Assembly (NCBI RefSeq): GCF_044704955.1
Contig: NC_091982.1
Coordinates: 6,634,001 to 6,698,000, forward strand
DNA length: 64,000 bases
Direction: 5' to 3'
Origin: Pristiophorus japonicus
Lineage: Eukaryota
In this document: piece after piece, positions 21,838-48,178 of the stretch
How positions within the stretch are numbered: position 1 is the first letter of the stretch
Layout: every line of letters starts with the position of its first letter
Position numbers and translations under genes: made by a program
Notes under the pieces: model-generated
What the model was told of the DNA's origin: nothing
What the model saw: the letters and a program-made list of their open reading frames with translations, nothing else
Databases searched by the model: none

Positions 21838-24040
21838 GAGGGGGGGGGGGGGGGGAGAAGGGAGGGGAGGGGGGGGGGGGGGGGAGAAGGGAGGGGAGGG
21901 GGGGGGGGGGGAGAAGGGAGGGGGGGGGGGGGGGGAGAAGGGAAGGGAGGGGGGGGGGGGGGAGAAGGGAAGGGGGGGGGGGGGGAGAAGGGAAGGGGGG
22001 GGGGGGAGAAGGGAAGGGGGGGGGGGGAGAAGGGAAGGGGGGGGGGGGGGGGAGAAGGGAAGGGGGGGGGGGGGGAGAAGGGAAGGGGGGGGGGGGGGGA
22101 GAAGGGAAGGGGGGGGGGGGGGGGAGAAGGGAAGGGGGGGGGGGGGGGAGAAGGGAAGGGGGGGGGGGGGGGAGAAGGGAAGGGGGGGGAGGGGGGGGGG
22201 GGGGGAGAAGGGAAGGGGGGGGAGGGGGGGGGGGGGGGAGAAGGGAAGGGGGGGAGGGGGGGGGGGGGGGGGGGGAGAAGGGAAGGGGGGGGAGGGGGGG
22301 GGGGGGGGGGAGAAGGGAAGGGGGGGGAGGGGGGGGGGGGGAGAAGGGAAGGGGGGGGGGGGGGGGGAGAAGGGAAGGGGGGGGGGGGGGGAGAAGGGAA
22401 GGGGGGGGGGGGGGGGGAGAAGGGAAGGGGGGGGGGGGGGAGAAGGGAAGGGGGGGGGGGGGAGAAGGGAAGGGGGGGGGGGGGGGGAGAAGGGAAGGGG
22501 GGGGGGGGGAGAAGGGAAGGGGGGGGGGGGGGGAGAAGGGAAGGGGGGGAGAAGGGAAGGGGGGGGGAAGGGGGGGGGGGGGGGGGAGAAGGGAAGGGGG
22601 GGGGAGAAGGGGGGGGGGGGGGGGGGGAGAAGGGAAGGGGGGGGGGGGGAGAAGGGAAGGGGGGGGGGGGGGAGAAGGGAAGGGGGGGGGGGGAGAAGGG
22701 AAGGGGGGAGAAGGGAAGGGGGGGGGGGAAGGGGGGGGGGGAAAGGGGGGGGGGGAAAGGGGGGGGGGGAAGGGGGGGGGGGGGGAAGGGAGGGGGGGGG
22801 GGGGGAGAAGGGAAGGGGGGGGGGGGGGAGAAGGGAAGGGGGGAGAAGGGAAGGGGGGGGGGGGGAGAAGGGAAGGGGGAGAAGGGAAGGGGGGGGGGGA
22901 GAAGGGAAGGGGGGGGAGAAGGGAAGGGGGGGGGGGGGGGGGGGAGAAGGGAAGGGGGGGGGGGGGGGGAGAAGGGAGGGGGGGGGGGGGGAGAAGGGAA
23001 GGGGGGGGGGGGAAGGGAAGGGGGGGGGGGGGGGGAGAAGGGAAGGGGGGGGGGAAGGGAGGGGGGGGGGAAGGGAGGGGGGGGGGAGAAGGGAGGGGGG
23101 GGGGAGAAGGGAAGGGGGGGAGAAGGGAAGGGGGGGGGGGAGAAGGGAAGGGGGGGGGGGAGAGAAGGGAAGGGGGGGGGAGAAGGGAAGGGGGGGGGGA
23201 AGGGAGGGGGGGGGGAAGGGAGGGGGGGGGGAGAAGGGAGGGGGGGGGGAGAAGGGAAGGGGGGGGGGGGAGAAGGGAAGGGGGGGGGGGAGAAGGGAAG
23301 GGGGGGAGAAGGGAAGGGGGGGGGGGAGAAGGAGAAGGGAGGGGGGGGGAGAAGGGAAGGGGGGGGGGGGAGAGAGAAGGGAAGGGGGGGGGGGGGGAGA
23401 GAGAAGGGGGGGGGGGAGAGAGAAGGGGGGGGGGAAGAAGGGGGGGGGGGAGAAGGGAAGGGGGAAGGGGGGGGGGAGAAGGGGAGGGGGGGGGAGAAGG
23501 GGAGGGGGGGGGGGGGGAGAAGGGGAGGGGGGGGAGGGGGGGGGGGGGGAGAAGGGAAGGGGGGGAGAAGGGAAGGGGGGGGGGAAGGGGGGGGGGGGGA
23601 GAAGGGGGGGGGGAGAAGGGGGGGGGGAGAAGGGAAGGGGGGGGGAGAAGGGAAGGGGAAGGGGGGGAGAAGGGAAGGGGGAGAGAAGGGAAGGGAAGGG
23701 GGAGGGAAGGGGGAGAGAAGGGAAGGGAAGGGGGAGAGAAGGGAAGGGAGGGGGGGAGAAGGGTGGTGGGGGGGGAGGGGAGAAGGGTGGTGGGGGGGAG
23801 GGGAGAAGGGTGGTGGGGGGGAGGGGAGAAGGGTGGTGGGGGGGAGGGGAGAAGGGTGGTGGGGGGGGAGGGGAGAAGGGTGGTGGGGGGGGAGGGGAGA
23901 AGGGTGGTGGGGGGGCGAAGGGTGGTGGTGGGGGGGGGGCGAAGGGTGGTGGGGGGGGGGGAGAAGGGGGGGGGGCGAAGGGTGGTGGGGGGGAGAGGGA
24001 GAAGGGTGGTGGGGGGGAGAGGGAGAAGGGTGGTGGGGGT
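21838..24040 (+). repeat. G-rich homopurine tandem repeat (GnAGAAGGGAA units, changing to GAAGGGTGGTG units)
   Basis: Directly visible; source of spurious Gly/Pro-rich ORFs. Confidence 0.95.
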
Positions 24041-43810: not shown

Positions 43811-44502
43811 ATTCTCCTGCCTTGTTCCTCCCCCACTGACTGAATGTTTGAGTCATTGGCCTCCTCCCCACAGAGAGGATTACCCAGGCACAGTTCTGAA
43901 CAGCACCCATCCTTTGTCTCTCCCATTCCCCCACCCCTCCTTCTCCCTTCCGCCTTTGCTCTTCAACTTCTCCCATCCCATAATTCCCTTCTCTACTCCT
44001 TCCTTCCCCCCCCCCCACCCAACCCCACGGTCTAAATCTGCTTGAAATGTATACTGCTTTTAGTTTTGATTCTTTGTGCAATGCTATAGAAGAGCAACTA
44101 TATATATATATATATATATAGCGGTGTAATGGTATTGTGGTCACAGGTGGTGCTGCACAGGTCACATCATGTGACTCATTAAGTACAGTAGGGCTCAACT
44201 AATGTAATATGACAGCGCCCCACTATACGGACACTGAAATTCCCTATCACGCACACAAGTACAATCCATTGTTCCCCAAACTTTCATTTTTTTTTAAAGT
44301 GAGGTTGCCTTCTTCATTTTCACAACTGGGCTGTCTGAAAGAGTCTATCTCTGTAATCTCCTCCAGCCCCACAATCCTCAGATATCCGTGCTCCTCCAGT
44401 TCTGGCCTTTTCAGTATCCCCAATTTTATTCATTCCACCACTGGCAGCCGTGCCTTCAGCTGGCAAGGCCCCAAGCTCTGGAATTCCTTCCCGAAACAAT
44501 GT

Positions 44503-44950
44503 CAGCTGTGGCTCAGTGGGTAGCACACTCGCCTCCGAGTCAGAAGGTTGTGGGTTCAGGCCGCACTCCAGGGACTTGAATACATAAATCTAGGCTGACA
44601 CTCCAGTGCAGTGCTGAGGGAGTATTGCACTGTTGGAGGTGCTGTCTTTCATATGAAATGTTAAACCAAGGTCCTGTCTGCTCTCCCAGGTGGATGTAAA
44701 AGATCCCATGACACTATTTTGAAGAAGAATAGCAGAGTTATCCCCGGTGTCCTGGCCAATATTTATTCCTCAATCAACATAACAATAACAGATTATCTGG
44801 TCATTATCACATTGCTGTTTGTGGGAGCTTGCAGTACGCAAATTGGCTGTCGCGTTTCCCACATTACAACAGTGACTACACTCCAAAAGTACTTAATTGG
44901 CTGTAAAGCATCCAGTAGTTGTGAAATGTTCTATATAAATGCAAGTCTTG
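44503..44950 (+). mobile_element. tRNA-headed SINE with Deu-type core (SacSINE1/AmnSINE-like)
   Basis: A box TGGCTCAGTGG, B box GGTTCAGGCC; core GGAGGTGCTGTCTTTC...GGTGGATGTAAAAGATCCCATG; L2-like tail CTATATAAATGCAAGTC; related copies on minus at 52525-52945 and 19680-19860. Confidence 0.8.
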
Positions 44951-45047
44951 GCCTTTATTGCAAGGGAGATTGAGTATAAAAGCAGAGAAGTCCTGGTGCA
45001 ACTAGTGAGGCCACACCTAGAGTACAGTTTTGGTCTCTGTATTTAAG

Positions 45048-45408
45048 TGAGGAGGCTTCTCGGCCTTTTGGCTAAGATCAAGTATAGTACCGTTTCTGAC
45101 CAGCCACCATGACCCCAGGGTGGTTCCTCCCTGGTCAGGAAGGTATATGCTTGCATTTTTGAAAACAGGAGGTGGGTGGGGAGGTTTGACCCATCCACCT
45201 CCACGGAGGTGTGTGGGGGACCTGACCCATCCACCTCCATGGCACGAACCTGGTATTGCAGTACTTCCAGGAACGGTGCAGTGGCTCTAGGCCTTTTGGC
45301 TAAGAGCATTGGCGCAGAGTGATCCTTGGCATGTGCAAGGTGACCTCTGGCGTTTGTGATTTGACAAAGAATTGGAACGATTGGCTACGAATTTCAAAAA
45401 AAAAAAAA
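45048..45408 (+). mobile_element. snRNA-mosaic retroposon (U2/U1/U2/U6-like pieces) with poly(A) tail and 7-bp TSD; candidate SINEU-like SINE, copy 1
   Basis: U2 5' GCTTCTCGGCCTTTTGGCTAAGATCAAGT at 45055; U1-like ACCATGACCCCAGGGTGGTTCCTCCCTGG; U2 3' ACCTGGTATTGCAGTACTTCCAGGAACGGTGCA 45248-45280; A-run 45396-45409; TSD ATTTAAG 45041-45047 / 45409-45415. Confidence 0.8.
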
Positions 45409-45420
45409 ATTTAAGGAAGG

Positions 45421-45605
45421 ATCGCTTCTCGGCCTTTTGGCTAAGATCATGCGTAACTGACCTGACAGGGGAGTAACCATGACCCCAAAGTGGTTCTCCC
45501 TGGATCAGGAAGGTGGTTCTCCTATGCTTTTTGGAAATAGGAGATGGGTGGGGTGAATTGACCCATCCACCTCCACGGAGGTGTGTGGGGGTGCTGACCC
45601 ATCCA
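45421..45605 (+). mobile_element. snRNA-mosaic element copy 2 (U2 5' end fused to U1 5' end), 3' end not found
   Basis: ATCGCTTCTCGGCCTTTTGGCTAAGATCA (first 29 nt of U2), then TAACTGACCTGACAGGGGAGTAACCATGACC...GTGGTTCTCCC (U1 5' arm-like), then TTTTTGGAAATAGGAGATGG (U2 Sm-site region). Confidence 0.8.
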
Positions 45606-48075
45606 CCCCCCCTCCCTCCCTCCCCTCACGCTCTCTTCCCCCCCCTCCCTCCCTCCCCTCACGCTCTCTTCCCCCCCTCCCTCCCTCCCCTCACGCTCTC
45701 TTCCCCCCCTCCCTCCCCTCACGCTCTCTTCCCCCCCTCCCTCCCTCCCCTCACGCTCTCTCCCCCCCCTCCCTCCCTCCCCTCACGCTCTCTTCCCCCC
45801 CTCCCTCCCTCCCCTCACGCTCTCTTCCCCCCCCCTCCCTCCCCTCACGCTCTCTTCCCCCCTCCCCTCACGCTCTCTTCCCCCCCTCCCTCCCCTCACG
45901 CTCTCTTCCCCCCCCTCCCTCCCCTCACGCTCTCTTCCCCCCCCCCTCCCCTCACGCTCTCTTCCCCCCCTCCCTTCCCTCACGCTCTCTTCCCCCCCTC
46001 CCTCCCCTCACGCTCTCTTCCCCCCCCTCCCTCCCCTCGCGCTCTCTTTCCCCCCCCCCCTCCCCTCGAGCTCTCTTCCCCCCCCCTCCCCTCGCGCTCT
46101 CTTCCCTCCCCTCTCTCCCCTCGCGCTCTCTTCCCCCCCTCCCTTCTCTCGCGCTCTCTTCCCCCCCTCCCTTCCCTCGCGCTCTCTTCCGCCCCCTCCT
46201 CCCCTCGCGCTCTCTTCTCCCCTCGCGCTCTCTTCCCCCCCTCCCTCCCCTCGCGCTCCCTTCCCCCCCCACACGCTCCCTTCCCCCACGCTCCCTCCCC
46301 TCACCAGCCCCACCCATGCTCTCTCTCTCTCTCTCTCCCCCGCCCATTCTCTCTCTCTCTCTCTCTCCCCCCCCCTCCCCACGCTCTCTCTCTTCTCCCC
46401 CCCCTCCCCACGCTCTCTCTCTTCTCACCCCCCTCCCCACGCTCTCTCTTCTCACCCCCCCCTCCCCACGCTCTCTCTCTTCTCCCCCCCTCCCCACGCT
46501 CTCTCTCTTCCCTCCCCTCGCGCTCTCTTCCCCCCCTCCCTCCCCTCGAGCTCTCTTCCCCCCTCCCTCCCCTCGCGCTCTCTTCCCCCCCTCGCGCTCT
46601 CTTCCCCCCTCTCCCCTCGCGCTCTCTTCCCCCCCTCCCTTCCCTCGCGCTCCATTTCCCCCCCCTCCCCTCGCGCTCCCTTCCCTCGCGCTCCCTTCCT
46701 CCCTCCCCCCCTCCCCCTCCCCTCTCCTCCCCCCTCCCCCCCTCTCCCTCCCCCCTCCCCCCCTCTCCCTCCCCTCCCCTCACGCTCCCTTCCCCCCTCC
46801 CCTCACGCTCCCTTTCCCCCCCCCTCCCCCCTCCCCTCATGCTCCATTCCCCCCCCTCCCTCCCCTCATGCTCCATTCCCCCCCCTCCCTCCCCTCATGC
46901 TCCCTTCCCCCCCCACACGCTCCCTTCCCCCCCCTCCCCTCACCAGCCCCACCCATGCTCTCTCTCTTCCCCCCCGCCCATTCTCTCTCTCTCTCTTCTT
47001 CCCCCCCCCCCACTCCCCACGCTCTCTCTCTTCTCACCCCCCCCTCCCCACGCTCTCTCTCTTCTCACCCCCCCTCCCCACGCTCTCTCTCTTCTCACCC
47101 CCTCCCCACGCTCTCTCTCTTCTCCCCCCTCCCCACGCTCCCTCTCTTCTCCCCCCTCCCTCTCTTCTCCCCCCCTCCCTCTCTTCTCACCCCCTCCCTC
47201 TCTTCTCCCCCCCTCCCTCTCTTCTCCCCCCTCCCCACGCTCCCTCTCTTCTCCCCCCCTCCCCACGCTCTCTCTTCTCCCCCCTCCCCACGCTCTCTCT
47301 CTTCTCCCCCCCTCCCCACGCTCTCTCTCTCCCCCCTCCCCACGCTCTCTCTCTTCTCCCCCCTCCCCACGCTCTCTCTCTTCTCCCCCCTCCCCACGCT
47401 CTCTCTTCTCCCCCCCCCCCACGCTCTCTCTCTTCTCCCCCCCCCTCCACGCTCTCTCTCTTCTCCCCCCCCCTCCACGCTCTCTCTCTTCTTCCCCCCC
47501 CCCCCCCACGCTCTCTCTCTTCTCCCCCCCCTCCACGCTCTCTCTTCTCCCCCCCCCCCTCCACGCTCTTTCTCTTCTCCTCCCCCCCCTCCCCACGCTC
47601 TCTCTCTTCTCCTCCTCCCCCCCCCCCTCCCCACGCTCTCTCTCTTCTCCCTCCTCCCCCCACTCCTCCCCACGCTCTCTCGCTTCTCCCCCCGCTCCAC
47701 GCTCTCTCGCTTCTCCCCCCTCCTCCCCGCTCTCTCGCTTCTCCCCCCTCCTCCCCACGCTCTCTCGCTTCTCCCCCCTCCTCCCCATGCTCTCTCGCTT
47801 CTCCCCCCTCCTCCCCACGCTCTCTCGCTTCTCCCCCCTCCTCCCCACGCTCTCTCGCTTCTCCCCCCTCCTCCCCACGCTCTCTCGCTTCTCCCCCCTC
47901 CTCCCCACGCTCTCTCGCTTCTCCCCCCTCCTCCCCACGCTCTCTCGCTTCTCCCCCCTCCTCCCCACGCTCTCTCGCTTCTCCCCCCTCCTCCCCACGC
48001 TCTCTCTCTCTTCTCTCCCTCTCCCCCCCCCCCCCCCTCCCCACGCTCTCTCTCTTCTCCCCCCCTCACCACGCC
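45606..48075 (+). repeat. Pyrimidine-rich compound minisatellite (CCCCTCACGCTCTCTT / CTCCCCACGCTCTCT variants, with a 30-bp unit array at ~47740-48000)
   Basis: Directly visible; source of spurious Pro/Ser-rich ORFs. Confidence 0.95.
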
Positions 48076-48178
48076 CTCACATGAACATGCAGATCCCATT
48101 AGCATCCTACTTGGATGCTAATATTACATATTGTGATTTCACTATGAAATTCGCAAAAACCCTTCAATAACACCTTAC

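Follow-up and report, generated by a model that had tools for sequence, protein, structure and literature searches.

The locus and its parts

The window (the whole analysed stretch of 64,000 nucleotides from Pristiophorus japonicus, in whose coordinates positions are given) carries at 45055-45409 a SINE copy composed of U2 nt 4-40, a U1 segment, U2 nt 97-186, U2 nt 7-29, a tail and a poly(A) tract (Table 1). The earlier note had described a mosaic of U2, U1, U2 and U6-like pieces, and its U2 parts were borne out: the Rfam U2 model matched at 45052-45286 (73.6 bits, E 3e-14), and alignment to the genome's own U2 gene scored 121, the shuffle maximum being 43. The Sm-like site at 45155, the duplicated module (36 bp, 45168-45239, inside the U2 3' part), stem-loop IV (U2 nt 153-186 at 45248-45281) and the second U2 5' piece that it listed are all present, as are the A-tail and the 7-bp target site duplication (TSD), the two copies of which begin at 45041 and 45409.

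Other parts of that description had to be modified. For the U1 segment, 10.7% of 300 shuffles scored as well as the window copy, which alone does not carry the assignment, but in older subfamilies the score reached 74 against a shuffle maximum of 43. A U6 origin was set aside as unsupported, since 9-15% of shuffles matched the U6-like part equally well and no Rfam U6 match appeared at E<=10. The altered letter in the branch-pairing region is real but private to the window copy, the rest of the subfamily having the same letter as U2 there. The interrupted host repeat, which we take to be CR1-like, does read across the insertion, but for only about 5-7 bases, and an older SINE copy, absent from the earlier note, starts at 45421. 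In this older copy a second Rfam U2 match spans 45421-45622 and positions 45456-45504 align with U1 nt 3-52 (84%, E 2e-7). The window site is thus itself an array, with a subfamily A unit before a B2 unit.

Table 1. Features of the insertion site in window coordinates
Feature	Position	Strand	Basis or remark
Interrupted host multicopy repeat	44951..45047	+	Window homologues continue with the bases seen from 45416 on
7-bp TSD, 5' copy	45041..45047	+	Nick context T/ATTT (slash, nick), compatible with a relaxed Keno-like consensus
Seven additional bases at the 5' junction, either an imperfect TSD extension or untemplated	45048..45054	+	Absent from the family
U2-derived head spanning U2 nt 4 to about 40	45055..45092	+	Alignment to the genome's own U2 gene
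U1 stem-loop I-derived segment, eroded in subfamily A	45106..45140	+	Weak alone (p about 0.11); traceable via B1-B4
U2 nt about 97-186, including stem-loops III and IV and the Sm-like site	45150..45281	+	Rfam, alignment
Second U2 5' piece, U2 nt 7-29	45286..45308	+	1.3% of shuffles equal its score
3' tail, origin unassigned	45309..45395	+	No significant match to U6 or the partner LINE
Poly(A), 14 nt	45396..45409	+	Sequence
3' TSD copy (45409-45415), then five host-repeat bases; spacer between the two SINE units	45409..45420	+	
Older SINE copy, subfamily B2, from U2 nt 1; 3' half lost	45421..45610	+	Rfam U2 53.2 bits, U1 20.2 bits
C-rich 28-41 bp satellite in place of the older copy's 3' half	45611..48080 (end approximate)	+	

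Long, strongly skewed satellite tracts, C-rich and G-rich, occupy 45611-48080 and 22001-24000 of the window. Upstream of the element, at 44501-44960, lies a tRNA-type SINE-like repeat, which we take to resemble shark or cartilaginous-fish SINEs.

A young SINE family descended from U2

A family-specific 35-mer gave 4,708 exact matches genome-wide (control 0), a lower bound on the number of SINE copies in this 5.9-Gb genome. The best-ranked 41 genome matches to the window SINE, spread over many contigs, were all 97-100% identical to it. At the 30 loci inspected the flanks were all different; junctions were shared and TSDs were locus-specific, with lengths of 7-22 bp at the 35 sites where a TSD was found. 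The family is young, comprises several thousand copies and is a mosaic of U2 and U1 pieces, in agreement with the proposal that the window element belongs to a multi-copy snRNA-derived SINE akin to SINEU.

Subfamilies ANC (U2 only), B1-B4, A (that of the window) and C were distinguished. ANC, the oldest, consists of a nearly full U2, the second U2 5' piece and the tail. Similarity to U1 scored 74 in B1, then 67, 64 and 42, and fell to 30-33 in A and C; in a subfamily tree rooted with the U2 gene, ANC branched first and the last positions fell to A and C. Together these data indicate that U1 sequence took over the middle of a U2-only ancestor, replacing about U2 nt 38-95, so that the history was not simply the repeated template switching among snRNAs envisaged before. 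Locus L216 holds a B3-B2-ANC array that is preceded by a 41-nt U2 5' piece in five tandem copies. The Keno site sequence (U2 nt 37/38) is altered in subfamilies B, A and C and kept in ANC, where it is often disrupted; the change is possibly an escape from self-disruption.

Simple patterns for the A and B boxes of Pol III promoters found no match in the SINE, in which there are three runs of four or more T. Full-length dispersed copies begin at, or a few bases from, U2 +1 and have no common 5' extension. Predicted folding of the SINE RNA was better than that of shuffled sequences (z -3.2 to -6.7; U2 gene itself -4.4). Two-sided compensatory changes were found in 0 of 81 predicted base pairs, and hence covariation lends no support to selection on the RNA structure.

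The partner LINE

The trail to the partner was a 27-nt Tx1 tail lying between two SINE units at one locus (L010). A genome search for Tx1 tail joined to SINE head yielded 21 matches (control 0), mostly of one distinct Tx1 subfamily and with the same TSD as the SINE. A full-length copy (L102) measures 5.73 kb and has a head made of U2 nt 4-46, an ORF1 containing PF23057 and an ORF2 of 1145 aa with APE endonuclease, RT and zf-RVT; both ORFs were intact in three of the five full-length LINEs checked. Its first 37 nt are 94.6% identical to the head of the window SINE (45055-45092), and a T-to-C change at U2 nt 39 is common to both. This 5.7-kb Tx1 LINE, with its U2 head and intact ORFs, is most likely the mobiliser of the SINE. 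Mobilisation by a Tx1 element, as suggested in the earlier note, also draws support at the genomic level from the target that SINE and LINE have in common (see below). Comparison of the two elements revealed no common 3' tail by which the partner would recognise the SINE RNA, a point against this assignment.

The partner LINE tail has 113 exact genome matches. Among 50 copies chosen by this tail alone, 14 had a SINE unit directly 3' and 36 had neither a family element nor U2 there; among the first 100 tails listed, six fall in a U2 cluster on contig C19. The partner is therefore not strictly specific for U2 genes.

Another Tx1 family is older, shares about 87% identity with the partner and likewise has a U2-derived head (L113, C19:15.21 Mb; L114, C4:137.71 Mb); it stacks at re-used sites, some of which are the same as SINE and partner sites. 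More than one Tx1 family may thus have mobilised the SINE. Candidates with zf-RVT number 3,758 genome-wide; in a first sample of 20 Tx1 loci found by zf-RVT, belonging mostly to the related, older Tx1 family, no SINE or snRNA lay nearby. A truncated partner LINE was also seen within a repeat, presumably histone H2B, and has been duplicated along with it (L241, L242).

Insertion into U2 genes

U2 nt 37/38 is an insertion site for SINE and LINE alike, and each also occurs at many dispersed sites with a relaxed Keno motif. The LINE tail with poly(A) and then U2 nt 38 was matched 29 times (control 0), 14 of these matches coming from an amplified short piece of another Tx1; the SINE tail at the U2 nt 37/38 site was matched 37 times (control 0). 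Of 30 SINE loci examined at the Keno site, 29 lie within family copies, mostly dispersed ANC, and the remaining one lies in a real U2 gene from which the promoter is missing.

The 59 kb examined of the C19 cluster hold no intact U2 gene. Six repeats there carry the partner LINE and two carry SINE subfamily C. Each of these inserts begins precisely at +1, the DNA upstream being 97-98% identical to its counterpart in intact genes; poly(A) and U2 from nt 38 onward follow, with a second LINE intervening in two cases. In this cluster the U2-derived head replaces the 5' end of the gene, and the element stands at +1 behind U2 upstream DNA. The one promoter-fused SINE that was compared showed 99.4-100% identity to five dispersed copies. 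No promoter-fused copies of subfamilies A, B or ANC were seen among the 30 loci examined; U2 arrays may have been collapsed in assembly or turned over, in which case this absence is weak evidence.

The partner LINE has also re-inserted at position 37/38 of the LINE head and of the SINE-C head (L175, L177, L179). Since the SINE-C head differs locally from U2, this suggests that location with respect to +1 plays a part in the C19 cluster. A second type of U2 gene, with different upstream DNA, occurs in repeats of about 18-21 kb (L188-L199, C9:113.4-113.8 Mb); after each, to judge from L188, come a Tx1 fragment of 440 bp and U2 nt 38-191.

Time-ordered arrays and re-use of nicks

Of the 30 loci with the greatest similarity to the window, 12 are head-to-tail arrays in which the local TSD forms the spacer, as are five of 27 distinct loci sampled in coordinate order. 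At least 200 tail-to-head SINE junctions exist genome-wide (control 0). Where consecutive units could be labelled (truncated and LINE units being skipped), the 5' unit was the younger in 32 pairs, the older in none and of the same subfamily age in seven. About six of the 32 are pairs of C before A, an order taken from the arrays themselves, and two units were mislabelled without effect on the order; some of the arrays had been picked because they contained subfamily A or LINE junctions. Away from U2 genes, incoming SINEs and LINEs insert again at the nick that lies directly 5' of an older copy.

The motif at primary nicks holds 4.3 bits and is of a relaxed Keno type (37 of 43 sites scored), the nicks matching the Keno site at 5.3 of 12 positions versus 3.75 in the control. 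Re-use of a nick was seen in 17-28% of cases (5/30; 14/50), whereas chance would give 1e-5 to 4e-4. Empty look-alikes were present for 11 of 37 array sites within 478 kb of sequence, taken from element flanks rather than random background, which implies 1e4-1e5 empty look-alikes per site class.

Re-use was also seen 5' of headless truncated LINEs (L245 and, up to 3.7 kb from U2-like sequence, L088, L106, L110 and L118). Its frequency there was 1/18 versus 5/30 (p=0.39); the count covers copies with the 5' end within 1.5-2 kb, and two of the 18 (L241, L242) are duplicates of a single insertion. Some host-repeat positions were struck at several loci; an exact count for one such site gave three matches. 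One host repeat was struck at or near the same position, often with arrays, at many loci (L015, L128, L129, L135, L219, L227, L258). By analogy with Mariner-N4 for SINEU-3, it is possibly a preferred secondary target.

A model for propagation and its alternatives

Taken as a whole, we think it probable that the window element belongs to a SINEU-type non-autonomous retroposon which is moved by a Keno-type Tx1 LINE, has its sources at U2 +1 and re-uses existing nicks. The source copies in U2 genes would, we infer from their placement, rely on the U2 promoter for their transcription by Pol II, and insertion behind that promoter suggests how a promoterless SINE and LINE could get transcribed at all. 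The U2 head of both elements would serve as a homology arm and not as a promoter: after target-primed reverse transcription, the cDNA end would pair with U2 nt 1-28/37, and pairing at the U2 5' end would create a seamless, promoter-fused new source. Dispersed SINE copies are probably mostly dead ends.

For the re-use of old nicks, the RNP may be tethered near existing copies via U2-derived sequence and cut the best site nearby, a candidate tether being read-through RNA that ends in U2 nt 38-191. Whether such element-guided tethering accounts for nick re-use we judge to be about an even call. It poorly explains re-use next to headless LINEs, some of which are as much as 3.7 kb away from U2-like sequence. 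The two processes might form a self-propagating capture of promoters, in which a SINE made of target RNA places itself at U2 +1 by means of its head as homology arm, while U2-derived RNA or DNA leads a Keno-type RNP to copies already present anywhere in the genome, so that it nicks just upstream of them and builds time-ordered arrays; this fuller version is put forward tentatively, the chances being somewhat against it.

Less likely than element-guided tethering, and short of even odds, is an account with the same family and the same partner in which a limited number of loci are intrinsically hot through their sequence and germline chromatin. The resident element would then be irrelevant, and new copies would land 5' because the upstream TSD keeps the context. 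Re-use next to headless LINE fragments, the insignificant difference in the headless comparison and the repeated striking of one position in the same host repeats all speak for it, and tandem SINEU-3 copies had a cause in the target sequence according to the consulted text of PMC4494074. Set against it are the low information content of the motif, the abundance of empty look-alikes implied by the element flanks (11/37 array sites) and the fact that re-use falls at the exact nick rather than across a region. It is rather unlikely that the copies in the U2 cluster are targets and not sources, the SINE being transcribed from promoters that happen to lie upstream or from an unknown internal one. 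The lack of a fused copy of A, B or ANC at the 30 loci would fit, as would the flanking-promoter transcription inferred for SINEU-2 in what was consulted of PMC4494074; the start of full-length dispersed copies at or near U2 +1 with nothing common ahead of it, and the near-identity of the fused SINE to young dispersed variants, argue for sources.

Two further accounts fare much worse. That the arrays are tandem duplications, products of dimeric source RNAs or assembly artefacts finds some footing in near-identical neighbours in a few arrays (L081, L085) but is very improbable, because the spacer is each locus's own TSD and differs among loci, units of different subfamilies stand in age order, TSD length varies inside an array, and LINE pieces from 27 nt to 5.7 kb share the TSD. 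The mosaic look of a single copy is all that favours a one-off chimeric snRNA pseudogene, or independent U2 retrocopies; in view of the thousands of exact 35-mer matches, the common junctions and the nested subfamilies, we give this practically no credence.

Under the preferred reading of a Tx1-mobilised SINE with sources at U2 +1, candidate sources standing behind U2 upstream DNA beside intact young LINEs make SINEU transcription directly testable. Within the arrays, physical order records the age of the subfamilies. That one nick is used again about a thousand times more often than by chance points to an aspect of Tx1 target choice not yet described, and this is of relevance to those who work with site-specific retrotransposons. 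Guidance to existing copies, if true, would mean that an APE-type retrotransposon chooses its targets through homology tethering.

Comparison with known systems

In the open literature searched, no snRNA-headed SINE family outside crocodilians was found; the consulted parts of PMC7245038 and PMC5381603 give no further one, and the present family may already be catalogued in Repbase or Dfam. As far as the consulted text of Kojima (2015; PMC4494074) goes, SINEU was found in crocodilians only and its transcription was left open, the puzzle being that snRNA promoters lie upstream of the gene. By that description, SINEU-1, -2 and -3 resemble the present family in their U1/U2-derived head, length under 500 bp, poly(A), TSDs and internal oligo-T, and further in having no recognised LINE-derived tail, a Tx1 partner with a U2 head and a common target, and tandem copies around a TSD (PMC4494074). 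The layout U2-U1-U2-U2-tail, derived from a U2-only ancestor, sets the present family apart from SINEU as described there. The targets found for it are U2 nt 37/38 and diverse sites, apparently unlike the Mariner-N4 (Mariner-N4_AMi) target given for SINEU (PMC4494074), and, unlike SINEU in that description, it has copies fused to U2 upstream DNA and arrays at many unrelated sites. The family is a SINEU-class variant, probably of a second origin independent of the crocodilian one.

The partner LINE shares with Keno, in the portions of PMC4640811 and PMC6136364 consulted, an APE endonuclease and an identical 3' flank within U2, and differs from Keno as described there in its relaxed specificity (36/50), its own U2 head and its SINE dependant; it behaves as a Keno of relaxed specificity. 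Utopia uses the same U2 site with occasional tandem insertion but has a restriction-like endonuclease and, in the consulted part of PMC4640811, no associated SINE described. The closest working analogues are the R2 SIDEs of Drosophila, which by the text consulted (PMC3414825) are likewise non-autonomous, occupy the site of a LINE in a multicopy RNA gene and depend on transcription of that gene. R2 SIDEs are described there as deleted LINEs with a ribozyme, residing in rDNA (PMC3414825), whereas the present SINE is made up of pieces of its own target RNA and is dispersed in thousands of copies.
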